DNA of 64,000 nt from an uncultured Trueperaceae bacterium (GCA_963799485.1 CAWCXJ010000013.1:421832-485831); one strand, 5' to 3'. Counted from the first letter of the stretch, positions 23,680-63,985 are shown. The notes: generated from the letters alone by a model not told the origin. Made by a program: numbers and translations.

Positions 23680-24225
23680 GGTTCGACGCTGGTTGAAGCC
23701 AAGCGCCTTGAAGCGGTGGTGGCAGACCGTGAGTTCACCGGCAAGCGCTGAGGGACTTAAGGCGCGTCAGCTCGTTACGCTGCCGGGTTTTTGGGTTACG
23801 CTTAGGTGTCGCCGTGACCCAGAGTAAAAAAGGCGAACTCGTGGTACTCGTGTGTAACGCCGATCCCGACCAAGCGCTTCGACGTTACCCGGCTCGCCGG
23901 CAAATCGAATTCAGCGAAGCGCCGAGGCGAAGCCGTCCGCTTTTGTCCGCCTTGAAGTCACGGGGCTTTAACCTCGAAGACACCCACATGACCACGTCCC
24001 AACAGCCGGATAAACTTTTGGCTCTGTTGGCGATCGTGTTTGCCTGGGCACATCTTGTCGGTGAGCGGTGCTACCACGACCGGTCGTTAAAGCTTAAAGA
24101 TGGTTACCTGCCCCAAAGCTGTTTCAAACGCGGCCTCGACGCGCTTCGCTCAGCCATCCTCGCAGGTCATGCGCCCGCCCCCATCAGCCTTGACCAGTGT
24201 CTCAAACTTTTGTCCCCGTAGTGAG
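23680..24225 (+). mobile_element. IS4-family transposase 3' remnant
   Basis: ADREF fragment, QIE..LSALKSRGFNLEDTH, AWAHLVGE; ends TTTTGTCCCCGTAGTGAG. Confidence 0.75.
23910..23936 (+). repeat. 27-bp double mini-hairpin element
   Basis: TTCAGCGAAGCGCCGAGGCGAAGCCGT is the exact reverse complement of 35782-35808. Confidence 0.92.
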
Positions 24226-24311
24226 GACGTACTTAGCCACCTAAGTTAAACTTTTGTGTCCGTTTACCCCTCTCCAAGACCATTTGTGTCTTTGGCATTT
24301 TTGCCGTTACC

Positions 24312-24674
24312 CTAACGCGCTTCTAAAATCACTACTGCTGTCGCGTGGGTGCGGGCGTGGCTCATGCTTAGGTGTGCGTTCCAGCCGTTTCGTTCCATCT
24401 CGGCGGCAATATGCTCGGAGAACTTCAAAACGGGTTTGTCACCGTCGCGCACAACCCACACGTCACGCCAACCGTGCGCCACGGGCCACGTCTTTTGAAA
24501 CGCTTCTTTTGCCGCAAAACGAACGGCCAAGGACGGCAGCGGATGTGGTTTTTTCAGGCAGTACGACAGCTCATCGGGGTGAAAATGCCGCTCCAAAAAC
24601 CTGTCGCGGTGCCGGTTCCACACACCCTGAATGCGGCCTAGTTCAACAATGTCGAGTCCTACGGCGATAACCAT
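24312..24674 (-). CDS. acpS: Holo-[acyl-carrier-protein] synthase
   Basis: AVGLDIVE, RFAAKEAFQK, HLSMSH; leaderless TATACT-6 nt-ATG. Confidence 0.92.
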   Translation of the reverse strand: MVIAVGLDIVELGRIQGVWNRHRDRFLERHFHPDELSYCLKKPHPLPSLAVRFAAKEAFQKTWPVAHGWRDVWVVRDGDKPVLKFSEHIAAEMERNGWNAHLSMSHARTHATAVVILEAR

Positions 24675-24702
24675 AACGTCAGTATAAAACGGCGTTTGAA
24701 GG

Positions 24703-25386
24703 CTAGGGGTGCCCCAACCGTAAAACGCGCTCACCGTCGGCGATGTAGGCGAGGTTTGCCATCCCCAGAAACAAGCCGTGCTCGAGCACACCGGGAACCC
24801 GGCTCATGGCGGCGGCAATTTCGTTCGGGTCGAAAGGTGCACCAAAGTAGCAGTCGAGCAGCAAGTTGCCGTTGTCGCTCCGGACAGGCTTCCCGTCCCG
24901 CTCACGCAGTACCGGGCGGCAACCGAGCGCCTGCAAATCTTTTTGCGCCGCGCCGAAACCGAACTCGAGAACTTCCGTCGGGACGGGTGCCTTTTCACCC
25001 AAGTAACCCACACGTTTACTCACGTCACCGATAAGGATAAAAGTGCGTGCCCGCGCCTCGACGATTTTTTCGCGCAAAAGTGCGCCCCCGAGACCTTTGA
25101 TCACGTCGAGGTTGTCGGTCACTTCGTCCATCCCGTCAATGGCAAGGTCGACGCCTTCAGCTCCCAGTTCAACGACCGGAATGCCTCTTTCACGCGCGAG
25201 CCGCTCGGTTTCTACAGATGTTACGGCGGCACGGATATCCTTTATGTCCCCGTGTTTAAGCATCTCGCCAATCCCAAACGTCGCGTAACGGGCGGTGCTG
25301 CCAGTGCCAAGGCCCAAAGTCATCCCGGATTTAACGTGTTTAATCGCCTCTTTCGCCGCTTGTTCTTTAAGCGCCTCAGCGGACAT
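24703..25386 (-). CDS. rpiA: Ribose-5-phosphate isomerase A
   Basis: LGLGTGST, IDGMDEV, IKGLGGALLREK, SDNGN, PGVLEHGLF. Confidence 0.95.
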   Translation of the reverse strand: MSAEALKEQAAKEAIKHVKSGMTLGLGTGSTARYATFGIGEMLKHGDIKDIRAAVTSVETERLARERGIPVVELGAEGVDLAIDGMDEVTDNLDVIKGLGGALLREKIVEARARTFILIGDVSKRVGYLGEKAPVPTEVLEFGFGAAQKDLQALGCRPVLRERDGKPVRSDNGNLLLDCYFGAPFDPNEIAAAMSRVPGVLEHGLFLGMANLAYIADGERVLRLGHP

Positions 25387-25486
25387 GGGTTCCACCGATA
25401 GAGCTTGTACGCCAAGCTGATTTCATCTTTTTTGTCATGCTGTAGATTAGCAAATGTGTAATAAGCTTTTTTAGGAGGAATTCTTA

Positions 25487-25954
25487 ATGACCCTTAAAGC
25501 AGGTGATAAAGCGCCGGATTTTACGCTCGAGTCCAACCAGGGTAGCAAAAGTTTGCGTGAGCTTCATGGCGAGTGGACGGTTCTTTACTTTTACCCCAAA
25601 GACAACACACCGGGTTGCACTCAAGAAGCGTGCGATTTTCGGGACGCCATGCCGGGGATGGGCGCGCAGGTTTTAGGCGTTTCGGCGGACGACCTAGCGT
25701 CCCACGCCGACTTTGCCGAGGGTCACAACCTGTCGTTTCCGCTCCTTTCCGATCCCACGGGCGAAGTCGCCAAGCATTACGGCGCGTTCGGCAGAAAAAT
25801 GATTCCGCACACCGATAAAACCTACGAAGGTGTGCTGCGCTCGACCTTTATCATCGATCCCGACGGAAACGTCGCCGAGGCGATGTACGGCGTAGACCAT
25901 AACGGGCACGCGCAAGCGGTGAGTGAGAAGCTTGAGGAGTTGAAAAGGGCGTAG
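25487..25954 (+). CDS. bcp: Peroxiredoxin, BCP/PrxQ subfamily
   Basis: LYFYPKDNTPGCTQEACDFRD; AGGAGG SD. Confidence 0.93.
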   Translation: MTLKAGDKAPDFTLESNQGSKSLRELHGEWTVLYFYPKDNTPGCTQEACDFRDAMPGMGAQVLGVSADDLASHADFAEGHNLSFPLLSDPTGEVAKHYGAFGRKMIPHTDKTYEGVLRSTFIIDPDGNVAEAMYGVDHNGHAQAVSEKLEELKRA

Positions 25955-25960
25955 CCCTCG

Positions 25961-26123
25961 TTGGAATTAGGTAAGGTGCAGCGGACAACAAACGAAGGAG
26001 CAGAATGCTCCGAGAGGGAGTTGTCATGAACAAGAGGTCGTACGAGATGAGTTTCAAGCTCGACGCGGCAAAACCGGTTGCTGAACAAGGCTGTAGTGTG
26101 CCTGAAGCGAGTCAACGTCTTGG
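25961..26123 (+). mobile_element. IS3-family left-end/orfA remnant
   Basis: Decayed MNKRSY..EFKLDAAK.V.EQGCSVPEASQRLG, cut by the next element. Confidence 0.6.
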
Positions 26124-26481
26124 TGGTCTTGGTCCGTAACTTTGGACAGTCGAAGTATGGTCTTGGTTCATTTCCTTCAAGTCTAGTAGGGTCTGGAATC
26201 CTGCCGAGGAGAAGCTTACGTCCGAAGGTAAACGAGTTGTCAAATACCCCCTTGAGTTCAAAACGACGCAGTCAAGCTTTTAGAAGACAAGGGTTACACC
26301 GTCTCGGAGGCAGCCAATAGCCTTGGCATTCCCCAGGCTAACCTCACGCATTGGTGTAGACACTTCCTGCGGTCGCCGTGAAGGTCGTTTGCTGCCGGGA
26401 TACAAGGGCGCAACCGACGGCGGCAGAGGCTGAGATAAGGCGTTTGCAGAGCGAGGTGAAGCGACCCGAGGTGGCGATTGT

Positions 26482-26507
26482 ACGGCAAGCCTCGGCGCTA
26501 CGCTGAC
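26482..26507 (-). repeat. 26-bp variant of the double mini-hairpin element
   Basis: ACGGCAAGCCTCGGCGCTACGCTGAC inside the IS3 orfA, inverted relative to the copy at 26737. Confidence 0.8.
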
Positions 26508-26736
26508 AAAAAAGACCGCCAGCTATTTTGCGAGACACTCGACCTGAAATGCGGCTTCGCGGAGGCACTCCCTGTCACGAGTGACGAGTGCTGCGCAGCA
26601 ACGGTCGCCGGCCACAGGTTGCCGTTCTAGGCCACGCTCAAGAGAGTCGGTCTACCCAGGAAAACGCTTTGCTACTCGGGAGGCGGCTCGCACTGCCATC
26701 CTCGCACTGTCATCTTTGAGTCCACCGAGATTTACT

Positions 26737-26762
26737 TTCAGCGAAGCGCCGAGGCTTGCCGT
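26737..26762 (+). repeat. 26-bp variant of the double mini-hairpin element
   Basis: TTCAGCGAAGCGCCGAGGCTTGCCGT; its removal restores GAG ATT TAC TAC AAC CGA (EIYYNR). Confidence 0.88.
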
Positions 26763-27137
26763 ACAACCGAGAGCTACACAGCGCGCTGGGCTATCAGACC
26801 CCGGAAGTTTACGAAAGCTTGCCGCAACCACCTGGAGCTTTCGTTCCCCGGGCGGCTTAGGTTATACTTCGACTGTCCAAAGTTATAGACCAAGACCAGT
26901 CTGCTGCATGATAAAAGCCTGCTCTTCGTTCCCCCAAGTTTTTAGCGTTCTGCGCGTGAGTTGCGCCGAGGTTTCAGCTCGAGCGCAACTGCCTGTGGGC
27001 GCTAAAGGTTGGCTGCTATGGCTTTTTTTGTCCCCTGCCGCTATGATTGCGAAAGCTGCTACTATGAGAACCGTTAAGAAACGGCTGTGAACTACCGGGC
27101 AGTAGAGGAACTTACAAAAGATAGAGAGGGGTGCCTT

Positions 27138-27416
27138 ATCGAAACGCTACGTGTCTCGGGAAATTCCCGGCCCAACTCCGTTGCCGGCGCGATTGCTGCA
27201 CTTTTACGCAGCGAGCGTGAAGTCGAGGTTCAGGCCATCGGGCCGCAGGCAGTCAATCAGGCGGTCAAGGCGATTGCCATCGCCCGGAGCTATATCGAAC
27301 TAGACGGTCTGGACTTAACGGCGCAACCCTCTTTTGTGAAGCTCGAGCTGCAGTCCGAAGAGCGCACCGCTGTGCGGTTTCACGTCCGGTCGCTCGCGCT
27401 CGTTACTCAGGACTAG
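27138..27416 (+). CDS. spoVS: SpoVS-family (Alba-like) protein, probable ATC start
   Basis: ETLRVSGNSRPNSVAGAIA..QAIGPQAVNQAVKAIAIAR; GAGAGGGG lies 6 nt before the ATC. Confidence 0.9.
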   Translation: METLRVSGNSRPNSVAGAIAALLRSEREVEVQAIGPQAVNQAVKAIAIARSYIELDGLDLTAQPSFVKLELQSEERTAVRFHVRSLALVTQD

Positions 27417-27538
27417 GTACCGGAGCGAGTTTTAGAGCAAAGTTTGAGACTGATGTTTAGTATGGTCACCGTAAAACGTCTAAAAGGCCCACGGGCTCGG
27501 ATAGTGGACCCCCGTTTAGATAAATAAATCTTCATAAA

Positions 27539-27559
27539 CTTGAGCACACCACACTCAGA
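27539..27559. promoter_or_regulatory. Putative HspR operator (HAIR-like)
   Basis: CTTGAGC-N7-ACTCAGA versus consensus CTTGAGT-N7-ACTCAAG. Confidence 0.55.
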
Positions 27560-27624
27560 TTTATTGTGGTAAACTTTCCCTATTAGGTAGTGAGTTTTAA
27601 GCGACTACCTCGAGGAGGAGAATT

Positions 27625-28314
27625 ATGTTTATAGGTGGAGGTTCAGGCGTTTTAGGCTATTATCTTATCGGTATCGTTGCGTTTGCCGCGTCGATGGCTG
27701 TGAGTGGTTGGCTCCGCTCGACTTACAACCGTTGGTCGAAAGTCGCCAACTCGTCCGGCCTGACCGGAAAACAGGTCGCCGAAGCCATTTTACAAGCGAA
27801 CAACGTCACAGGTGTTCGCGTCGAAGCGGTCAAGGGACAGCTCAGCGACCACTACGACCCTCGCACTAAAGCTGTGCGTTTGTCCGAAGGCATCTACGAC
27901 AAGGCCAGCGTCGCAGGCATGGCGGTTGCGGCGCACGAAGTCGGGCACGCGATTCAGCACGCGCGGGCCTATGCGCCTTTAGCGTGGCGCAGCGCGATTG
28001 CACCTGTTGCCGGAATCGGCTCACAGTTCGGTATCATGTTGGCCGCGCTCGGTCTCTTTATTCAGGCAGGTGGGCTTTTACAAATCGGCATTATTCTCTT
28101 CTCCGCCGCCGTCCTCTTTCAGGTCGTCACGCTCCCCGTCGAGTTCGACGCGAGCCGCCGCGCGCTCGCGCAGCTCAATAAACTCGGCTTGGTGACAAAC
28201 CGCGACAGCGCCGGGGCAAGGAGCGTGTTGACCGCCGCTGCGATGACCTACGTTGCCGCTGCCGCAACCGCGATCGCCTACCTGCTCTACTTCATCTCGG
28301 CCAGCCGCAGATAA
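27625..28314 (+). CDS. Membrane zinc metallopeptidase (YugP/Zn_peptidase_2-like)
   Basis: LSDHYDP, AAHEVGHAIQH, VTLPVEFDASRRA, AAAMTYVA. Confidence 0.92.
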   Translation: MFIGGGSGVLGYYLIGIVAFAASMAVSGWLRSTYNRWSKVANSSGLTGKQVAEAILQANNVTGVRVEAVKGQLSDHYDPRTKAVRLSEGIYDKASVAGMAVAAHEVGHAIQHARAYAPLAWRSAIAPVAGIGSQFGIMLAALGLFIQAGGLLQIGIILFSAAVLFQVVTLPVEFDASRRALAQLNKLGLVTNRDSAGARSVLTAAAMTYVAAAATAIAYLLYFISASRR

Positions 28315-29546
28315 ACACTCGCGGAACCGCTTTAGAGATTTTGCGCCGTGTCCACCACGGCGCATTTTCTGCGCCGTCGCTCGCTTCAGCCTTGGCAAAA
28401 AGCAGCTTGAGCGAACAGGACAGGGGTTTTGTTGCGGCGCTCGTTTACGGCGCGTTGCGGCTCGAGCTGGCCCTTGACGCACAGCTAAAACCGTTCTTAA
28501 AACGCCCCGACAAACTTCCGGCTGAAGTCTTGGACGCGCTGCGGCTCGGCGCCTTTGAAATTCTGTACCGAGGCACGCCCAGACACGCCGCCGTAAACAC
28601 CTGGGTAGACGCCGTAAAAGTGCAGCAGCCGCGACTTGCCGGACTGGCCAACGCCGTTTTACGGCGGGTGGCGCGGCTCGAGCTTCCCGCCGCAACCGCC
28701 GCCGGACTCCCCGAATGGCTTTACGGCGAATGGGTGACGCGGTTCGGCCCGGAACGCGCCGGGGACGTCGCAGCAGGGATGAACGCGAGCGACCCGCTCT
28801 GGCTGACGGCGTATCACCCGGAGGCGATGCACGCGCTTTTGGCGGACGGCTGCGAGGTTCAGTTCGGGCCGGTCGAGAGTACGTTGCGGGTCAAGTTGGG
28901 GCGACCCTTGAGCGAGCTTACAGCTTACAAAAACGGGTGGGTGCAACCGCAAAACCCCGCGTCAACCCTGCCGGTGAGGTTACTGGGGCCCACCCCCGGA
29001 GAACGTATTTACGACCTGGCCAGCGGCGGCGGCGTCAAAGCGGCGCAACTTGCCGCCGCCGGGGCCGAGGTGACGAGCCTCGAGCTGCACCCAGGCAAGC
29101 TAGAGCGCGCCGAAACGAATCTGAAACGTTTGGGACTCTACAGCAAAAGTGTCGCCCACGACCTCCGCACCGTCCCCGGCCTGCGCCCTGCGCCCAAAGT
29201 CCTGCTCGACGCCCCGTGTAGCGGCACCGGTACCCTGCGCGGCAACCCGGAGCTGCGCGGACGTGTTACCCAAGGGGAGGTCGCCTCACTGGGGGCGCTG
29301 CAGCGCGAGTTGCTGAACACTGCCGCCGCGCTGACCGCGCCGGGCGGCGTGCTGGTCTACGCGGTGTGTGCACTGACCGAAGCCGAAGGCCCGGAACAGA
29401 CCCGCTGGTTTTTGGACACCTACTCCGACTTTGAAGCCGAGCCGTTTTTGTTCGACCTGCCCGCCGACAACGGGCCGGAAGGTTCGACAATTTTGCCGCT
29501 AGACGGACTCGACGGGTTTTACCTCGTAAGGTTTCGCCGGAGCTGA
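28311..29546 (+). CDS. rsmB: RsmB/NOP-family RNA m5C methyltransferase with NusB-like N-terminal domain
   Basis: LVYGALR, LANAVLR, LLDAPCSGTG, LVYAVC, DGFY. The frame is open back to ATA at 28311; the first canonical start is TTG 28341. Confidence 0.85.
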   Translation: MNTRGTALEILRRVHHGAFSAPSLASALAKSSLSEQDRGFVAALVYGALRLELALDAQLKPFLKRPDKLPAEVLDALRLGAFEILYRGTPRHAAVNTWVDAVKVQQPRLAGLANAVLRRVARLELPAATAAGLPEWLYGEWVTRFGPERAGDVAAGMNASDPLWLTAYHPEAMHALLADGCEVQFGPVESTLRVKLGRPLSELTAYKNGWVQPQNPASTLPVRLLGPTPGERIYDLASGGGVKAAQLAAAGAEVTSLELHPGKLERAETNLKRLGLYSKSVAHDLRTVPGLRPAPKVLLDAPCSGTGTLRGNPELRGRVTQGEVASLGALQRELLNTAAALTAPGGVLVYAVCALTEAEGPEQTRWFLDTYSDFEAEPFLFDLPADNGPEGSTILPLDGLDGFYLVRFRRS

Positions 29547-29584
29547 CACGTAATTTCGTTTTATCCAGGCGTTAAACTCGCCTT

Positions 29585-30478
29585 ATGGCACAAGACATCC
29601 TAGAGCTTGGCGAAGGCGTCTACTACTTGCCAGGAACCGTCAACATGGCGCTTGCGACAGGAACCGATAAAGAGGCCGTCATCATAGATACAGGCGGTGA
29701 CAAGGACGCCGGGAGGCGCGTAAAAAAAGCGTGCGAAGCGCTCTCGGTGACGCCGGTCGCCATCCTCAATACCCACGCCCACGCCGACCACTACGGCGGC
29801 AACGACTTTTTGGTACGCAACTTCGGCTTGCCGGTTTACGCGCCGCCCTTTGAGGCGAGCATCATCGAAAACCCGTATCTGGAACCCGTCTACCTCTTTA
29901 ACGGAGCCAAACCGCCCAAAGAGCTGCTGTCCAAATGGCTGATGGCGAAACCCGTCAAGGTCACGCATGTGCTGGGGCCGGGGAAGCTCGAGCTTTCCGG
30001 TCTCACCCTGGAGATTTACGACACCTCCGGACACGCCCACACCCACTACGCCGTAAAAATCGGCGACGTTTTGGTCGCTGCCGACACAGTGTTTGGTATG
30101 AGCGTGCTGGACAAATACCCGCTCCCGTTCGGTCAGGATATCGGGGCGCAGAGAGAGAGCGCGGCGCGGGTCGCTGCGCTGGGCTCGAGAATCGTTCTAC
30201 CCGGTCACGGCAATCCGACCGAAGCGGTTGACGTTCTGGTTGAGGAAAACCTCGAGGCGTTCGCGCGGGCTGCTAACGCTGTAGCAGCGGCGTGTACGGG
30301 TGTTGGAACTGAAGGGGTGCTTAAAACTGCGGCGGACGCGTTGGGGCTTGAAATGCAAGATTTGCCGCGTTACTACCTCAATTTGTGCGTTGTGAGCGCA
30401 TATCTGAGTTATTTGCGGGAAGCGGGACGCGTCGAACTTACGGTGCGAAACAACCAAATTGTATGGACGAGAGGTTAG
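29585..30478 (+). CDS. MBL-fold metallo-hydrolase
   Basis: IIDTG, THAHADHYGG, GH, PGHG; leaderless TAAACT-6 nt-ATG. Confidence 0.9.
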   Translation: MAQDILELGEGVYYLPGTVNMALATGTDKEAVIIDTGGDKDAGRRVKKACEALSVTPVAILNTHAHADHYGGNDFLVRNFGLPVYAPPFEASIIENPYLEPVYLFNGAKPPKELLSKWLMAKPVKVTHVLGPGKLELSGLTLEIYDTSGHAHTHYAVKIGDVLVAADTVFGMSVLDKYPLPFGQDIGAQRESAARVAALGSRIVLPGHGNPTEAVDVLVEENLEAFARAANAVAAACTGVGTEGVLKTAADALGLEMQDLPRYYLNLCVVSAYLSYLREAGRVELTVRNNQIVWTRG

Positions 30479-30744
30479 GTTTTTGTGCCCGGAGCGGTAG
30501 TAGTCGGCAAAATCACTGAGACAGGTTTTGAAACGACCACACCTGAACAGCGATAAAACTGCGGTTTTCCAAAAGCGACTGATTTCCCGAAATCCGGAAT
30601 AAAAAATGCTCTACAAATCCCCACCTAGCACAGCAGCAAAGATAGTGCGGCGCAACCGACCAAGGTGAAACCGCTAGGGGCAGTGTAGGTGTACTTACTT
30701 TGGTGGCGATGTAAAAAACGCAACTCGAGCCCACCCGGCTTCGG

Positions 30745-30981
30745 CTACAACTTCGCTAAAAGCCTGCTCTGGGCGTCACGCTCGTCGTCGCCGTAAACGA
30801 GGTGAAGGTAGTAGCCGCCCCTCGGGTCGGCGGCGCGGCGGAGTTCGCGGAGCCTGGTCTCGGCGCGGCGGTACATCGCAGCTTCGTTCAGCGGGGCACA
30901 GGGAAAGGTGTGGAGCAGCTCGAGCCCGCCCGTTTCCTCCGGAACTTTGTTACGCCAGACTTTGAAAATATAAAATGCCAT
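30745..30981 (-). CDS. Small hypothetical protein
   Basis: 78-aa ORF with host-like codon usage, divergent from polA. Confidence 0.6.
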   Translation of the reverse strand: MAFYIFKVWRNKVPEETGGLELLHTFPCAPLNEAAMYRRAETRLRELRRAADPRGGYYLHLVYGDDERDAQSRLLAKL

Positions 30982-31144
30982 CCGAAGGTCTAGTGTAGCG
31001 TACTCGGGCAGCCTCTGTGAACCTCTTACCCGGCTCGCCGCGCGACCTCATACCCAGCTGCCGACCTCGCCGTAAAAAGGCGCGTTGTACACTGGTAGGT
31101 AATGCGTTTGCCCTGCCCTACTTTTTTTTGCACCCTGAGCGTCC

Positions 31145-33706
31145 ATGGCTGAGCGAACTCAAAGCCCGGCGGGCCGCAACGGTCATAAAATCGTCATCAT
31201 CGACGGTCACGCGCTCGCGTTTCGTTCGTACTACGCCATCCGCGACCTCAGCAATTCCAGAGGTGAGACGACCAACGCGGTCTTCGGCTTTTTGCGTTCG
31301 CTGCTGCGTATTTTGCAGGAAGAGGGCGAGTTCGACGCGACGGTCGTGACCTTCGACGCGCCCGCTAAAACCTTCCGGCACGAACAGTTTGACGGTTACA
31401 AGGCGGGGCGGCGCGACACGCCCGAAGATTTGCCCCGGCAGATTCGGCAGATCAAGCGGGCGGTCGAGTTGCTGGGGCTTTACCAGATTGAGGTGCCGGG
31501 GCTCGAGGCCGACGACCTCATCGGCACTATCGCCACACGCTGCGCCGAACGCGGTTACAAAGTCGAGATCGTCACTTCTGATCGCGACGCGTACCAGCTC
31601 GTCGGTGACCACATTACGGTGCGCGGGCTCAGCAAAAACGATTCGTTCGGCCCCGCCGAGGTGTTCCAAAAGTTCGGCGTCACCGTCGCGCAGTGGGTCG
31701 ATTACCGCTCGCTTACCGGCGACGCCTCGGACAACATCCCCGGCGCGAAGGGCATCGGCCCGAAAACGGCGGCGAAACTGCTGCAAGATTACGGGACGCT
31801 CGACGCCATTTTAGAACAGGTTGAAACGCTCAAACCCGAGAGCGCCGCTAAAAAGGTTGCCGCCAGCATAGAAAACGTCAAGTTTTCGCGTGAGCTCTCA
31901 CGCATCATTACCGACGCCGACTTAGAGATCAACCCCGAAGGCTGGTCGAAACGCGAGCTGCAACGTGAGGCGTTGACCGAGCTGTTGCAAACCCTCGAGT
32001 TCGGTTCGATGCTCCGTGAGCTGGGCCTAACCGACGAGGCGACAAGCAGCACCTCGGCAACCGGGAGCAGCTACCGTAAAATCGCCTCAGCCGATATCTT
32101 TTTCGGGGGGGCGTTCGGATTCGTGCTCTCGAGCGCCTCCCCGATGAGCGCCGAGCTGACCGAACTCGCCGTCGCTTCGGCGGGAACCGTCGCTGACGTT
32201 GAGTCCGAATGGGCGCAGGCGATTCTTGGTAGTGAAGGGACACTCAACGCCTGCGACGCCAAAGCGTTAGCCGTTTACGCCTCACGCGGCGAGGGGGGCG
32301 AACGGGTCTCCCCCGGCGACGACCCGCTCTTGATGGCGTATGTGCTGGACCCCAACACCGCCGACCCGGAAACGGTCGCACGGCGTTACGGCGCACCCGA
32401 CTGGGGCGTCACCGCCGCGTCACGGGCCGTGACGACCGCCGAACTCCTCAAAATCCTGCCGCCCAAGCTCGCCGCCGAACCGCGCCTCAAAGACCTTTAC
32501 GAAAAGATTGAGCGTCCCTTGGCCCATGTTCTCGCCCAGATGGAGCGCACCGGCGTCAAAATCGACACGGCGTTCTTGGGCCGACAGTCCGAAGCAATGA
32601 GTGAAACGCTGCTGGGCCTCGAGCAAAAAGTTCGCGAAATCGCCGGCAACGACGCCTTGAACCTCAACTCACGCGACCAGTTGGCTGAACTTTTGTTTGA
32701 AAAACTCAAGCTGCAAGCAGGCCGTAAAACGACCACGGGCAAACGTTCGACCGCCGTAAGTGCCCTGGAGCCGCTCCGTGACGTGCACCCGGTCGTGCCC
32801 TTGATCCTCGAATACCGCGAGTTGGCCAAACTCAAAAGCACCTACCTAGACCCGCTGCCCCGCCTCATCAATCCCGAAACCGGACGCCTCCACACGACCT
32901 TTAACCAAGCAGCCACCGCGACCGGGCGGCTCTCGTCAACGAACCCGAATCTGCAAAATATCCCGGTGCGGACCGAAATCGGGCGTGAAATCCGGCGCGG
33001 CTTTGTCGCCGACGAAGGTACGACGCTCTTGGTTGCCGACTATTCGCAGATCGAGCTGCGGATTTTGGCGCACATTACCGGTGAAGAAGCACTCTTGGAG
33101 ACCTTCCGGTCGGGCGACGACATCCACCGCCGCACCGCCGCACAGATTTACGGTGTGGACACCTCCAAAGTCAAACCCGACATGCGCCGGGTAGCGAAAA
33201 TCATCAACTTCGGTGTGCTTTACGGGATGTCGGCGCACCGCCTGACCCGTGAGCTGGACATCAGCTATGAAGAGGCTGCTGCGTTTATCAAAACGTACTT
33301 CGAGCGCTACCCCAAGGTGCGGGATTATATCGAGGCGACTTTGGAGTTTGCCCGTAAAAACGGTTACGTCGAAACGCTCCTGGGCCGCCGCCGGCTGATT
33401 CCAGACATCAGCAGCACGAACCGCAACGCGCGCGAGTACGCCGAACGCACCGCCTACAACATGCCGATTCAGGGGACACAGGCCGATATCGTCAAGCTCG
33501 CCATGCTGCGACTCTCCCCCGAACTCGCCGCATCGGGTGCTAAACTCTTGCTGCAAGTTCACGACGAACTCGTGATCGAAGCGCCGCAAGCTGCCGCCGC
33601 CGAGGTCGCAGAAACCGTCAAGACGGCGATGGAGGGTGCTTACACGCTCGAGGTACCGCTCACTGCCGAGGTCGGGGCAGGGCAAAACTGGCTCGAGGCA
33701 AAGTAA
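31145..33706 (+). CDS. polA: DNA polymerase I (Taq-type, degenerate 3'-5' exonuclease region)
   Basis: IDGHALAFR, EADD, GDASDNIPG, TGRLSSTNPNLQNIP, DYSQIELR, KIINFGVLYG, QVHDEL. Confidence 0.98.
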   Translation: MAERTQSPAGRNGHKIVIIDGHALAFRSYYAIRDLSNSRGETTNAVFGFLRSLLRILQEEGEFDATVVTFDAPAKTFRHEQFDGYKAGRRDTPEDLPRQIRQIKRAVELLGLYQIEVPGLEADDLIGTIATRCAERGYKVEIVTSDRDAYQLVGDHITVRGLSKNDSFGPAEVFQKFGVTVAQWVDYRSLTGDASDNIPGAKGIGPKTAAKLLQDYGTLDAILEQVETLKPESAAKKVAASIENVKFSRELSRIITDADLEINPEGWSKRELQREALTELLQTLEFGSMLRELGLTDEATSSTSATGSSYRKIASADIFFGGAFGFVLSSASPMSAELTELAVASAGTVADVESEWAQAILGSEGTLNACDAKALAVYASRGEGGERVSPGDDPLLMAYVLDPNTADPETVARRYGAPDWGVTAASRAVTTAELLKILPPKLAAEPRLKDLYEKIERPLAHVLAQMERTGVKIDTAFLGRQSEAMSETLLGLEQKVREIAGNDALNLNSRDQLAELLFEKLKLQAGRKTTTGKRSTAVSALEPLRDVHPVVPLILEYRELAKLKSTYLDPLPRLINPETGRLHTTFNQAATATGRLSSTNPNLQNIPVRTEIGREIRRGFVADEGTTLLVADYSQIELRILAHITGEEALLETFRSGDDIHRRTAAQIYGVDTSKVKPDMRRVAKIINFGVLYGMSAHRLTRELDISYEEAAAFIKTYFERYPKVRDYIEATLEFARKNGYVETLLGRRRLIPDISSTNRNAREYAERTAYNMPIQGTQADIVKLAMLRLSPELAASGAKLLLQVHDELVIEAPQAAAAEVAETVKTAMEGAYTLEVPLTAEVGAGQNWLEAK

Positions 33707-33821
33707 ACTATGACAACTCAACAAAAGCCGAAAACCTCACACACGCCGTAAACCGGGCCGAAGGCGTGCATTTTAAGATTAGCTTAAGGTTGAAGTCGTT
33801 AAAATGAGTACAATGAGCATT

Positions 33822-35156
33822 ATGTCCCGACACTACTTTGGCACCGACGGCATCCGGGGGGTCGCCGGCACCTCCCCGATGACCGCAGAATTCGCCTTCT
33901 TGGTCGGCGTCGCCGCTGCCGAAGCCCTGAAAGGCGCGGGCCGCGACACCCCTACTGTCCTGATCGGACGCGACACCCGCCGCTCCGGGCCGATGCTGCT
34001 TTTTGCACTCGTCGCCGGGTTGACCTCGCGCGGCGCGCACGCCGTCGAACTCGGCGTGATGCCGACGCCCGGTGTGTCGCACCTGTGCCGCTCGCTCGGG
34101 GCCGCTGCGGGCGTCGTCATCAGCGCCTCGCACAACCCTTTTGCCGATAACGGCATCAAGTTTTTTAGCGCCGACGGCGAAAAGCTTTCGGACGCGCTCG
34201 AGGCTGAAATCGAAACTCACATCGACCAGGCTCAGGCACTACCGCCTGTGACCGGCGCGGACATCGGTAGCTTCGAGCGCTACGACCGCGCGAGCGGACA
34301 CGAATACCGCGACTTTTTAGTCGCCAGCGGCCCCGACTTAAACGGGCTCAAAATCGGTCTCGACTGCGCCAACGGAGCCGCCTACAAACTCGCGCCGGAA
34401 ATCTTCACCTTGTTGGGCGCGGACGTGCGCGTCATCAACGCCGAACCCGACGGCCTCAACATCAATACCGCTTGCGGCTCCACGCACCCGGAAGCGATTG
34501 CCAATTTTGTCCAGTCCGAAGGTCTCGACCTCGGTGTGACCTTCGACGGCGACGCCGACCGCGCGCTCCTCGTCGACCGTTCGGGCCGGCTGATTTCGGG
34601 CGATCACATGCTCGCTATCTGTGCGCTCTACCGCCATGAGCAGGCGGTCGTCTCGACCATTATGGGCAATTTGGGGTTGGAGCATTACCTCGAGCGCCAC
34701 GGCGTCACCTTCCACCGCGCCGCCGTCGGCGACCGCTACGTCCACGAGATGCTCCGCACCAAGGGCTTGTCGTTAGGCGGCGAACAGTCCGGGCACGTGC
34801 TCTTTTTAGACAAAGCGCCGACGGGCGACGGGATTTTAAGTGCGCTGCAAACGCTCGCAGCGGTGCAGGGCTCGAGCAAGAGTCTCGAGGTGTGGTTCGA
34901 CGAAATCACCATGTACCCGCAAACCTTACTCAACGTCCGGGTCGACCCACTCGTCAAAGCCCGGCTCGCCGAACACCAGCAGGTGATGGCGGCCCTTCAG
35001 GCAGCCTCGCTCCGCCTTAACGGGGAGGGCCGCGTTAACGTCCGGCCTTCAGGGACTGAGCCGCTCGTCCGGGTTATGGTCGAAGGGCGCGACCAGGTGA
35101 TGATTGAGCAGGTCGCGCGTGACATCGCTGCAGTCGTCGAACGAGCGACACTTTAA
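33822..35156 (+). CDS. glmM: Phosphoglucosamine mutase
   Basis: FGTDGIRG, VISASHNP, DGDADR, GGEQSGH, RPSGTEP; TACAAT lies 7 nt before ATG 33822. Confidence 0.96.
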   Translation: MSRHYFGTDGIRGVAGTSPMTAEFAFLVGVAAAEALKGAGRDTPTVLIGRDTRRSGPMLLFALVAGLTSRGAHAVELGVMPTPGVSHLCRSLGAAAGVVISASHNPFADNGIKFFSADGEKLSDALEAEIETHIDQAQALPPVTGADIGSFERYDRASGHEYRDFLVASGPDLNGLKIGLDCANGAAYKLAPEIFTLLGADVRVINAEPDGLNINTACGSTHPEAIANFVQSEGLDLGVTFDGDADRALLVDRSGRLISGDHMLAICALYRHEQAVVSTIMGNLGLEHYLERHGVTFHRAAVGDRYVHEMLRTKGLSLGGEQSGHVLFLDKAPTGDGILSALQTLAAVQGSSKSLEVWFDEITMYPQTLLNVRVDPLVKARLAEHQQVMAALQAASLRLNGEGRVNVRPSGTEPLVRVMVEGRDQVMIEQVARDIAAVVERATL

Positions 35157-35182
35157 TTCAGTCCGAAACCCAGCAAAGACCG

Positions 35183-35218
35183 GCTCACCTCTCGCATAAC
35201 TGCGGGTGGGCTTTTTTT
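35183..35218 (+). terminator. Probable terminator after glmM
   Basis: GCTCACC..GGTGGGC stem followed by a T7 run. Confidence 0.55.
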
Positions 35219-35781
35219 GTACGCTGCGATTAGAAGCGAGACGACATTGTTCTACAAGCGGCTGTGCTTAGAGCCAGGCTTTTATCACTAGCACTTCCAA
35301 CATTCACAGCAACAAGGTAAACTAAGGCGTGGGCAGCTGTTCACTAGCATTACAGCTGCAGTTAGCAGGCGTAAGTTGAGCCATGACTTTCTCCAACGGC
35401 ACACTGCCCAACTTCAAGACTTGGACAGCCGGACTCGATAAGCTCCATCGCCGCATCTCAGAATACTTCGGACGTTCCGAACAGCAGCAGCGCGTTAAAG
35501 CGTACCTACAAGCCCTGTTGAACCCGGTCGAGCGCAAAAATAGCTGGCAGTTTGCCGAATGCTCAGGTGAAGCCACGCCCGATGGGATGCAGCGGCTACT
35601 TTCAACGGCTGTGTGGGACGCCGATGTGGTTAGAGATGAACTGTGCAGATATGTTTTAGGTAGTTTAGGCGATGAGCAAGCGGTATTGGCAGTCGATGAA
35701 ACCGGCTTTCTGAAACAAGGGGACAAATCAGTCGGTGTGAAGCGTCAATACAGTAGCACCGCTGAGCGCGTTGAGAACTGT

Positions 35782-35808
35782 ACGGCTTCGCCTCGGCGCT
35801 TCGCTGAA
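35782..35808 (-). repeat. 27-bp double mini-hairpin element
   Basis: Adds TASPRRFAE into the conserved VENC|QVGVF motif. Confidence 0.92.
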
Positions 35809-36638
35809 CAGGTAGGTGTGTTCTTGGCCTACACAACAGCTCAAGGAACAGCATTCATCGACCGAGAACTATTTCTACCGAAAGAATGAGTCGGTAATCT
35901 TCCTCGTCGCCGTGAAGCTCACATCCCTGACGAAGTAACCGGGTCAACCAAGCCCGAGTTGGCTAAGACGATGCTGCAACGTGTTTTTGATGGGGATGTA
36001 AAAGCCGCTTGGGTCACCGGGGACGCGGCCTATTCCGGTTACGGCGTGCGCTCGTGGCTTGAAGAGAAGAAACAGCCACATATATTCGCCATAGCCTCGA
36101 ACTTCCATGTCTGGACTTGGGATAAGCAAGGGCCTCGGCAGAAGCCGGTCAAAGACATCGTAGATGGGTTCGACGAACTTCGCTGGCAGCGGTTGAGCGC
36201 CGGGTACTAGCGAGGCGCAATTTGGACGATCCAACCGACCTCGCCTGCTTTACGGTCTTCGCACCGCAGACCACACCGCTAGAGCGTGTGGTTCAGGTAG
36301 TCGGGTCGCGTTGAGCTATCGAAATCGGCTTCAAAACCGCAAAAGGCGAAGTGGGTCTCGACCGGTACGAAGTGCGTTCGTGGACGGGTTGGTATCGGCA
36401 TATCATCCTTGCTCTGCTAGCCCATGCGTTTCTGGTGACGATACAGGCGCGTGAGAAAAAGGGGGCTCGGCAGCCGCGGCTGCTCAGCTCATCGCCTTGA
36501 CGGTTCCCGAAGTTCGTCGTTTATTTGCTTTGGCACTACGGCAGGTGGTTCGGCGAGCGTTTGTATTGGCCTGGTCGGTGTGGCGACGCCAGCATCAGTT
36601 TAGAGCCCAGCAATGTCATCATCGCCTCGGCAACGGCG

Positions 36639-62580: not shown

Positions 62581-63386
62581 GGTAATGGCTCAATCATGAA
62601 TGCTAGCCCTACGTTCAAGGTTGTAACGGTGTAAAAAGAGGTGCAGACAAGTGAGATGCATCTCGTCGGACTTAGAGAAAGATAGAGTCTTGCGGACAAA
62701 CCGAGCAAGCCGCTGCCTAACAGTGTTGTTGAACCGCTCGATGTGAGCTGTTAGACCAGAATCTTTGCCAACTGCTTGGTGGTGCGTCTTGAACAAAACG
62801 GCACCTCCCGGGCCTGTTCGCTCATCAGGAATGACGGTTTGATAGGCTTCCCAGAAGTCAGTAAAGCAGATGCCTTGCTTGAAGACAGTAGGAACAGCTT
62901 GCCAAAGATAACGACAGGTGGCAACGCCTCTACCGCCGACCACGCAAGCTACGACTTGTCGCGTACGCTTGCACAGGGCTAGCCAAATCCAACGTTTATT
63001 GGCTTTGCAGCGTACAAACGACCACATTTCGTCTAGTTCCAAGCAGACCGTCTTCGGCTCATTGGGTTCGACCAGCGTATCTTTAAGCGGCGGAAGCGTC
63101 TTGGCTTTTTTTAAGCCATTTGGTCACCGTGTTACGTGACACACCGAAGGTACGCGACAAACCACGCAGACTCGAGCGCTCTTCGTAAGCTCTGAGTATC
63201 TCTTCCTTACGCGCCTCGCTATAGCCGAAGTCTGGGTTCTCTCTACTCGCCTTACCGCACGCTCGGCACTGATACTTCTGCTTGCCATTAGGCGCTTTGC
63301 CATTCTTGACGAGCTGTTCGCTCCCACAGTGATAACATTCGATGCTGACCATCCCTTAACTTATCAGTTTGGTTTGAACCATTACC
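62581..63386 (-). mobile_element. IS1-family element (insA 63083-63352, insB 62590-63042, -1 frameshift)
   Basis: IR GGTAATGG(C/T)TCAA; 8-bp TSD GAGAAGTT (62573-62580, 63387-63394); Zn ribbon CYHC..CRAC; A7G slippery site at 63106-63112; ELDEMWSFV, TDFW, HIERFNNT. Confidence 0.95.
62785..62820 (-). repeat. 36-bp in-frame insertion in insB
   Basis: Adds RTGPGGAVLFKT between VIPDE and HHQAVGK; internal IR GAACA..TGTTC. Confidence 0.7.
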
Positions 63387-63432: not shown

Positions 63433-63985
63433 TAAACAACACACCGACTAAAGTCGGAGGGTTTGAGACGACGCCTGAAAGTCGGGATACGGGTCGTAGA
63501 CCCGTTAGTCCTCCGTCTTGAAGTTGTCGTCCCGAGTCGGTTCCAAGTGGTGTTCCAAGTAGCTCTTGATCATCTCCTCCGTTACCTGCCCGACGGTCGC
63601 ATAAAAGTATCCCCTCGCCCGGAAGTGTCTGCCCCAATACCGCCCTTTCAGCTTTGGAAACTCCTCGAACAGCTTGCTCGCACTTCGTCCCTCGATTCGC
63701 CGCATGATCTCGCTTGGGGCCAGCGTCGGCGGAGCGCTTACCAAGATGTGTACATGCTCGCTACTGACTACCCCACTCAGTATCCGTATCTCGAACGCCT
63801 CGCAGGTTTGCCGTACCAGTTCTCGCACTCGCTCGGCAGCGTCACCCTTGAGTACCTTGTAGCGGTACTTCGTCACCCAGACAAAATGGTACTCGATGTT
63901 GAAAACCGTGTGACTCCCACAGCGATACTCCACCCCCTAAGGCTGGCAGATGAAATCTGACCGCCTAAAGGCGGTGGCTTGAACC
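63433..63985 (-). mobile_element. tnpA: IS200-type element, stand-alone Y1 transposase (63505-63933)
   Basis: YHFVWVTKYR, HVH, RGYF, IKSYLEH; matching subterminal hairpins CCGACTAAAGTCGG (63444-63457) and CCGCCTAAAGGCGG (63961-63974); outer ends approximate. Confidence 0.93.

Follow-up and report, generated by a model that had tools for sequence, protein, structure and literature searches.

A 26-27-nucleotide gene-less module of Trueperaceae, probably mobile and resembling small dispersed repeats

Mobile DNA shorter than about 50 nt is, to our knowledge, nearly undocumented, and the only description we know of, made in Nostoc in 2008, leaves the mechanism still open. It concerns the small dispersed repeats SDR1-8 of Nostoc punctiforme and other Nostocaceae, reportedly described by Elhai et al. 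2008 (Genome Res 18:1484) as gene-less units of 21-27 nt. They are said to lie within other repeats, heptamer-rich sequences, mini-transposons and their own copies, to show filled and empty sites without target duplication, and to have a predicted hairpin and an unknown mobiliser. Here we analyse a unit of 26-27 nt found in a 64-kb stretch of DNA from an uncultured Trueperaceae bacterium (the window, CAWCXJ010000013.1:421832-485831; in our handles G000:C13:421832-485831), whose genome, G000, comprises 3.66 Mb in 15 contigs with 59% G+C. The unit is probably the shortest of a family of very small, gene-less mobile modules with defined ends, a Trueperaceae family of the SDR-like kind, and it is among the smallest mobile-looking DNA elements known. 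A preliminary description of the window had proposed an ultra-small non-autonomous element with an unknown mobilising enzyme. This is still the best reading, as we found neither uninterrupted homologues that already contain the inserted residues, nor a lack of further copies, nor signs that the insert is an adapter or assembly artefact.

The likeness to SDRs is one of description and extends to several features. The Trueperaceae unit is short, dispersed and gene-less; it shows filled and empty sites without duplication (in an IS256 transposase gene of genome G084, an IS1 paralogue, and the hairpin and heptamer-rich repeats of genome G023); and it is nested in a heptamer-rich repeat of G023, in insertion sequence (IS) elements and in tandem arrays of itself. 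The comparison with the 21-27-nt repeats of cyanobacteria, drawn in the preliminary description, stands as to kind and has to be corrected as to lineage: a search for the pattern TCAGCGNAGCGCCGAGGC(2-3 nt)GCCGT in a collection holding one genome per prokaryote species found only two records, both of Truepera/Trueperaceae, which belong to the Deinococcota. According to PMC5861425, a look at HIP1-rich cyanobacteria outside Nostocaceae found no SDRs. The Trueperaceae family differs from the SDRs further in its low copy number, its GCGNAGC mini-hairpin, its A-C-purine target with an A that is sometimes C, its strong bias to transposase genes in G000, and a structure without support from compensatory changes. 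Our literature searches, with supplements and subscription-journal papers outside their scope, found no such elements described in Deinococcota.

Other short mobile or repeated sequences were compared in the same way. Elements of the IS200/IS605 type and their gene-less derivatives, the palindrome-associated transposable elements (PATEs), insert beside a short target that is kept and not duplicated, and have hairpins near both ends. The module resembles them in appearing beside a short fixed target (5' of A-C-purine) without duplication and with re-insertion possible. The end hairpins of the IS200 copies resident in G000, CCGCCTTTAGGCGG and CCGACTTTAGTCGG, identified by aligning five copies, are unlike and unrelated to the module ends, and the module is at least four times shorter than any IS200/IS605 derivative that we know of. 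It differs from miniature inverted-repeat transposable elements (MITEs) in that its ends, TCAGCG and GCCGT, are not inverted repeats and in having no target-site duplication. Repetitive extragenic palindromes (REP/REPIN) are likewise short, dispersed and hairpin-forming, and are thought to be moved in trans on single-stranded DNA without duplication by REP-associated tyrosine transposases (RAYTs; PMC6006769). In contrast to these, the Trueperaceae unit has no long imperfect palindrome or GTAG-type head and consists, in its canonical form, of two direct heptamers; its copies in G000 number 15 rather than hundreds, and it is mostly intragenic rather than extragenic, with 13 of 24 independent contexts in transposase reading frames. 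These contexts were obtained from 42 distinct ones by removing four tandem-array junctions and two chance-like matches in GC-rich coding sequence (L028 and L040) and merging those with similar flanks. No single-copy Y1 gene flanked by module copies is present among the five full-length Y1 genes of G000. Finally, Ssn GIY-YIG nucleases recognise an NTS/SRM hairpin repeat of ~30 nt as single-stranded DNA and, in the passages of Chenal et al. 2025 (PMC11893778), are shown to cut, not to transpose. They are a possible model for the recognition of the Trueperaceae hairpin unit by a small nuclease, with the difference that the small GIY-YIG gene of G000 (G000:C6:111194-111457) is not flanked by module copies. 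As homologues of this gene are present in 5/5 congeners without the element and absent from the carrier G084, we rejected it as the mobiliser; the GIY-YIG tallies and the Y1 tallies below include genome G115, flagged as unpublished, on which no claim depends. The module thus lacks at least one of the defining features tested for every one of these classes, namely REP/RAYT, IS200/IS605 derivatives, MITEs and Ssn motifs.

The window contains four copies of the module, whose positions and hosts are given below together with one empty site.

23736..24221, + strand: IS4-family transposase remnant, host of the first copy (NCBIfam NF033591, E value 8.3e-15)
23910..23936, + strand: 27-nt module, T followed by the 26-nt core TCAGCGAAGCGCCGAGGCGAAGCCGT, with CCG directly 3' (exact match)
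26050..26910, + strand: internally deleted IS3-family remnant (orfA and orfB motifs in three-frame translation)
26482..26507, - strand: 26-nt module, G followed by TCAGCGTAGCGCCGAGGCTTGCCGT (sequence, and genome-wide pattern match)
26737..26762, + strand: 26-nt module, T followed by TCAGCGAAGCGCCGAGGCTTGCCGT (sequence and reading frames)
35383..35889, + strand: IS701-family transposase fragment, host of the fourth copy (Pfam DDE_5, E value 1.5e-25; NCBIfam NF033540)
35782..35808, - strand: 27-nt module, exact reverse complement of the first copy (exact match)
62710..62739, - strand: empty site in an IS1 paralogue reading ERFNN|TVRQR (BLASTN, 75% identity, gap at the insert)

Both occurrences of the exact 27-mer TTCAGCGAAGCGCCGAGGCGAAGCCGT and both 26-nt variants of the preliminary description were recovered; in 100 dinucleotide shuffles, the 27-mer had no match (0/100) even with up to 3 mismatches. 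The variants differ in their loops, the second being TT in both and the first being GTA in the copy at 26482-26507. The assignment of the hosts to IS4, IS3 and IS701 also held, by NCBIfam profiles for IS4 and IS701, with a Pfam profile in addition for IS701, and by motifs and paralogue identity for IS3. The IS4 remnant matches profile positions 185-318 of 340 and stays under the cut-off as it is a fragment, while the IS701 fragment scores 158.4 bits against an NF033540 cut-off of 150. Removing the inserts restores QIE|PLLSALK, VENC|QVGVF and EIY|YNR, as judged from the reading frames and, for IS701, also from homologues.

In the IS4 remnant, the first copy is read in frame as FSEAPRRSR directly after the codon of the catalytic E. 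Without it, the remnant reads Y-x2-R-x3-E-x6-K, which we take to be the transposase motif known by that name, and the same insert is found in the IS4 copies of contigs C12 and C8. The IS3 remnant contains two copies in opposite orientations, separated by 230 bp. One lies at the end of orfA, beside an A-rich frameshift site, and disrupts the frame, the translation EVAIV|KKTASYFARHST being restored when it is left out. The other is within the C-terminal IE.Y|YN.R.HS.LGY motif, at the codon where a metagenomic IS3 copy (L036) has a 27-nt copy. The 3' part of this remnant has 80-97% DNA identity to other IS3 copies of the genome. The fourth copy is read in frame as TASPRRFAE between VENC and QVGVF of the IS701 fragment. 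Housekeeping genes, including polA (DNA polymerase I with a Taq-type exonuclease domain; window 31145-33706), are located between the IS remnants, and the four copies thus lie in chromosomal DNA and not in an IS-only island.

A genome-wide count found further copies, in total 15 on 8 contigs of G000: 13 match the pattern exactly, and a further two deviate from it at two positions each. When the pattern was read backwards, no match with fewer than four mismatches appeared. Judged by their flanks, the 15 copies represent seven insertion events, each of them in a transposase gene.

IS4: three copies, on C13, C12 and C8
IS701: one copy, at window 35782-35808
IS3 remnant of the window: two separate insertion sites, 26482-26507 and 26737-26762
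IS3-family element: seven copies (NCBIfam NF033516, 208 bits)
IS1: on C10 (G000:C10:22839-22865)
IS21: on C11 (NCBIfam NF033546, 270 bits)

Contigs C14, C15, C2 and C3 are small, have a lower G+C (0.57-0.58) and consist of repeated DNA to 33-91%, C14 and C15 mostly duplicating one another. They may be IS-rich plasmids or redundant assembly, and the seven IS3-type copies may therefore represent fewer loci.

Repeated DNA (at least 80% identity) makes up 6.7% of G000, yet all seven events lie in transposase genes; the chance of this is 0.067^7, or ~6e-9, and ~0.002 if only IS DNA and an assumed 10% of other dispensable DNA keep insertions. Of the 13 transposase contexts among the 24, ten were assigned by Pfam or NCBIfam matches, one by its paralogue (IS1) and two by motifs only (IS3 orfA and L034). 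Several sites coincide with transposase motifs presumed to be catalytic or are only a few codons away from them. The other contexts include loops of hairpin repeats, the heptamer-rich mini-repeat, a signal peptide, the sequence directly upstream of lepA and the end of an acetyltransferase gene; four or five of the 24 resisted classification. A unit that is nine codons long and, in its canonical form, has a stop codon in one of six frames only can persist inside genes; in G000 it does so only in transposase genes. G023 has an in-frame copy in a host gene (L017:1481-2782), within the signal peptide of a solute-binding protein (Pfam SBP_bac_1). Here and in L039, the nine residues LRLRLGAAL interrupt MIKRLF-LRLRLGAAL-ICITACFVLG next to a gene for a LacI-type regulator, and the host gene tolerates them.

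The nine residues might have belonged to the transposases themselves, as the preliminary description allowed. The IS3-type, IS701 and IS256 homologues are without them. Among 120 IS3-type homologues listed, 108 have an uninterrupted PWxN(G/A)x.E.F(N/H), in 11 the motif was not located by the script, and the one filled is the protein of G000 itself; a Truepera record (L072) is uninterrupted at this site, reading PWQ|NGY with the DNA CTGGCAG|AACGGCTAC. We dropped IS3 homologues truncated at the insertion codon as evidence, since the truncations are contig ends or frameshifts and uninformative. For IS701, the motif was located in 114 of 120 homologues listed and 113 of these 114 read VENCQVGVF, while P0241 (84% identical) has an insert at the same place. 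All 117 IS256 homologues with a located motif have V (112), I (3) or L (2) at the codon interrupted in G084, including P0121 with 96% identity. In G084 itself, an empty IS256 copy (L152) coexists with seven filled ones. Outside the 27-nt gap, empty and filled sequences agree at all but two of 1364 positions, and these two are no more than 3 nt away from the junction. Compared with the C10 copy, the IS1 paralogue in the window is short of precisely the 27 nt of the insert. In G023, the heptamer-rich repeat has seven empty loci and two filled with the 27-nt unit, and the hairpin repeat has empty loops with ACG or ACA and one filled copy. The preliminary description had noted no obvious target duplication, and none was seen in any filled/empty pair.

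Alignment of the filled and empty alleles, proposed earlier as a way to define ends and target preference, places the insertion directly 5' of an A-C-purine triplet. The left flank contains little information, and behind the core the 24 contexts have the following bases.

+1: A or C in 23/24 contexts
+2: C in 21/24 contexts
+3: A or G in 22/24 contexts
+4: A in 14/24 contexts

The G023 hairpin repeats read ...gggcgaac-ACG-aggttcgccc..., or ACA in place of ACG, when empty, and have the unit directly before that triplet when filled. As the empty sites hold ACG or ACA, the triplet belongs to the target and not to the module. The codons for the conserved Cys in IS701 and for the Asp in IS3 need the same bases. 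In copies with C at +1, the empty or homologous sequence calls for A. For the G084 IS256, the empty copy has a GTG Val codon; the G023 hairpin changes from empty ACG to filled CCG; and the IS1 paralogue has ACT where the filled copy has CCC. For IS21 (Asp expected) and IS3 L036 (Tyr expected), the A at +1 is presumed from protein motifs rather than from alignment. For this subset of copies, the event can be described, from the alleles compared, as X-core-M (28 nt) taking the place of one A. We dropped the description of a 30-nt module replacing 3 nt, suggested by the G084 pair (ACC vs ...CCG), given that the G023 hairpin repeats keep ACG or ACA behind the insert; the +3 difference of the G084 pair can be a synonymous GGG/GGC difference between copies. 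As the target triplet survives insertion, a filled site stays available for further hits. Repeated hits would account for the head-to-tail arrays, with a period of 27 nt, that are found upstream of lepA.

The unit consists of one variable base (A 8, G 8, T 8 and C 0 in the 24 contexts) and a 25-26-nt core, TCA-GCGNAGC-GCCGAG-GC(2-3 nt)GC-CGT. The preliminary description had seen two GCGAAGC mini-hairpins. This holds for the first heptamer, which is regularly GCGNAGC with any of the four bases at N (a single degenerate copy reads GCTTTGC), and fails for the second, where the loop is GNA (GAA, GGA, GTA or GCA) in only 12 of 24 contexts, AAA in one and TTT, TT, TCT, TTC, TCC, CT or a degenerate TTG in the other 11. 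By itself, GCGAAGC is about as frequent in the window as expected (26 against 25.75), and it is the whole unit that is distinctive. Of all GCNNNGC sequences, only those with GNA loops form very stable mini-hairpins, and GCGNAGC has a melting temperature of 70-76 C for all four N, according to passages of PMC13037366. The loops of the second heptamer occur in complementary pairs, GAA/TTC, GGA/TCC and AAA/TTT, which may indicate that loops can invert on the 3-bp stem GGC/GCC. Where the loop is T-rich (e.g., L009), a 7-bp stem can form between the two heptamers.

The search of related genomes found full-length copies in 4 of 128 Trueperaceae genomes: 13 in G000, 6 in G023, 7 in G084 and 1 in G113. 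Single matches in 14 further Trueperaceae genomes were judged to be chance from the letters alone. Metagenomes of several projects contain 42 copies on 39 contigs, and viral contigs, searched for phage carriage, gave 0 matches. A short, GC-rich and hairpin-forming sequence could prompt the idea of an adapter, a chimera or an assembly error, the artefact that the preliminary description had also considered; nothing was found in its support, and we give it practically no credence. Variants of the unit are present in four separately assembled Trueperaceae genomes and on the 39 metagenome contigs, the unit is in frame at conserved codons, and contigs of two public runs from two studies (X1 and X2) span the IS701 copy without gap or change; this bridging covers that one of the four window copies, and one of the runs may be the source sample.

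The copies in the G023 mini-repeat link the unit to longer forms. The slot reads GCCTG-A-CC/CT/TT/GT-AGCT in the seven empty loci; the 27-nt unit fills it in the two loci mentioned and in six metagenome variants, and forms of 75-110 nt fill it in four loci (L166/L196, L167/L197, L198 and L199). The longer forms all start with TCAGCG; three end with CGAGGCnnnGCCGT or a close variant, and L199 ends with GAAGCTGT. They are modular, being made of repeated GGGCGAAGCC blocks, and the longest, of ~110 nt, are gene-less. A subfamily with a slightly different 3' half is present in two hairpin loops, before an intact ACG or ACA. By their sequences, the 26-27-nt element appears to be the shortest member of a family with shared ends. 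The same forms could be read differently: since they have both ends and occupy the same slot, and the 27-mer is little more than the two ends, the unit might be an excision scar left by a larger transposon with ends TCAGCG... and ...CCGAGGCnnnGCCGT, the small units themselves being immobile. We hold this to be quite improbable. Half-site and end searches in G000 returned no longer element with these ends, only the known copies and coding-context matches taken for chance; the longest forms in G023 have no gene; and a scar is not expected to recur as exact 26-nt cores in 24 contexts or to form head-to-tail arrays of whole units.

If the unit is a mobile module, the enzyme that moves it would be encoded elsewhere and act in trans, most likely on single-stranded DNA folded into hairpins, as the mini-hairpin, the hairpin-loop targets and the lack of duplication suggest. 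It would be inserted directly 5' of A-C-purine without duplication, the A sometimes becoming C, and the kept target may be hit again and give rise to head-to-tail arrays. Y1/HUH transposases, named as candidates in the preliminary description, found no support: the Y1 domain PF01797 is present in 4/4 carriers but also in 24/124 non-carriers, the carrier G084 has Y1 transposase as fragments only, and of seven Y1 matches in G000, five are full-length and belong to IS200 copies that have ends of a different kind, the two partial ones being outside the end comparison. These IS200-type copies, containing the Y1 transposase only, are at window 63550-63909 (-) and G000 C1:228069, C1:274207, C13:319422 and C12:2970. 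The segment G000 C13:445341-445480, which precedes the first module by ~400 nt, shares 99% identity with sequence adjoining the C1:228069 copy.

Several observations weigh against a mobile module. No mobilising gene was found with the Y1, GIY-YIG and end searches, the copy number is low at 15 in G000, and no polymorphic or newly arisen insertion was seen within G000 itself. All seven events there are in transposase genes without an explanation for the bias. The nearest-neighbour DNA fold is no better than that of shuffles (z -0.17 to +1.01), a result that fits the statement, in the passages of PMC13037366, that conventional thermodynamic models do not capture the stability of mini-hairpins. 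There are no compensatory changes because the stems never vary and only the loops do, and this invariance of the core, two degenerate copies apart, is partly by construction, since the search patterns fixed most core positions. Lastly, identical inserts at the same codon of diverged copies are not easily explained with a loose three-base target.

These identical inserts are found in several hosts. The IS4 copies of C13 and C8 have 79% identity over 334 nt and inserts identical at 27/27 positions; the IS3-type lineages at C2:72615 and C2:86487 have 81% identity over 458 nt and identical inserts. Had the insert diverged with its flanks, the probability of 27 unchanged bases would be about 0.002-0.003. 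The metagenomic IS3 copies L032, L038 and L045 carry 26-nt inserts at NCY|DNA with 0/26 differences and right flanks that are 76-96% identical, and in L046, with flanks ~50% identical, the insert differs at 2/26 positions. Either independent hits struck the diverged copies at one and the same base or constraint preserved an insert that was carried along, and homing, gene conversion or selection on the insert could produce the pattern. The unit might then spread by site-specific homing or conversion among transposase genes, or through a host system that recognises such genes, with no transposition to loose targets. The filled IS701 homologue P0241, the seven of seven G000 events in transposase genes and the several sites at or near motifs presumed to be catalytic would agree with this. 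We nevertheless find it unlikely, as the flanks beside the insert are identical for 4-12 nt only, too short for ordinary homologous conversion, and units in G023 and the metagenomes lie in non-IS DNA, such as hairpin loops, the signal peptide, upstream of lepA and the acetyltransferase gene end. The recurrent IS3 and IS21 sites, moreover, have the bases ACAAC in common (CCAAC, with C as the first base, in two filled copies), and a sequence target on conserved codons can explain part of the recurrence.

The insert might also be a functional part of its host gene. It would then serve in regulation or recoding, be cut out of the RNA or bypassed during translation, and be maintained by selection. 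Translational bypass elements, such as the T4 gene 60 gap and the mitochondrial byps, have matching take-off and landing codons. Downstream of the frame-breaking 26-nt insert, L032 and L038 have 25 identical codons, 25 synonymous differences and 10 non-synonymous ones, and insert-bearing IS elements are multi-copy, with seven IS3-type copies in G000 and seven IS256 copies in G084. Divergence before independent insertions explains the synonymous pattern equally well, however, and transposase supplied by other copies, or conversion between near-identical copies, makes multi-copy spread possible. The unit is found in both orientations to the gene, its transposase hosts belong to seven unrelated families, and it also lies in hairpin loops between genes; inspection by eye of one site (IS3 L032) showed no take-off codon with a matching landing codon; and no Rfam family matches the region, a search at E <= 1 giving two unrelated weak matches and nothing at the copies. 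A recoding role is therefore very improbable.

The module, if mobile as we propose, provides clean material for resolving a mechanism, with an exact core, a three-base target, empty and filled IS256 copies in one genome, hairpin loops, longer relatives and arrays. Nine-codon insertions can accumulate in transposases, at or beside motifs presumed to be catalytic, which bears on the decay or taming of IS elements, and for annotation, such inserts split or lengthen transposase genes. More speculatively, and with little probability in our estimate, an undescribed trans-acting activity of Trueperaceae might exchange one adenine for a small hairpin cassette of 28 nt, preferring transposase genes at or beside conserved motifs and re-hitting the same codon in diverged IS copies. 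If true, this would be a new, nucleotide-replacing mode of transposition or a host mechanism disabling or gating jumping genes.

A second, unrelated module of ~53 nt was seen in the same IS3 genes. It starts with CAGCGGACAGG, ends with TGTCCAAGAC and has the stem GGACA/TGTCC. It is present at the HHSD|RG codon of the metagenomic copies L038 and L046, whose flanks are ~50% identical, with 4/53 positions differing between the two, and is missing from L032 and L045. In the species collection it has nine loci (L203-L211) in only two Truepera records, once in an IS1 gene at ERFNNTTR|QR. Its occurrence in both IS3 and IS1 genes is a hint that a general process is at work and that the 26-27-nt unit is not an isolated oddity.

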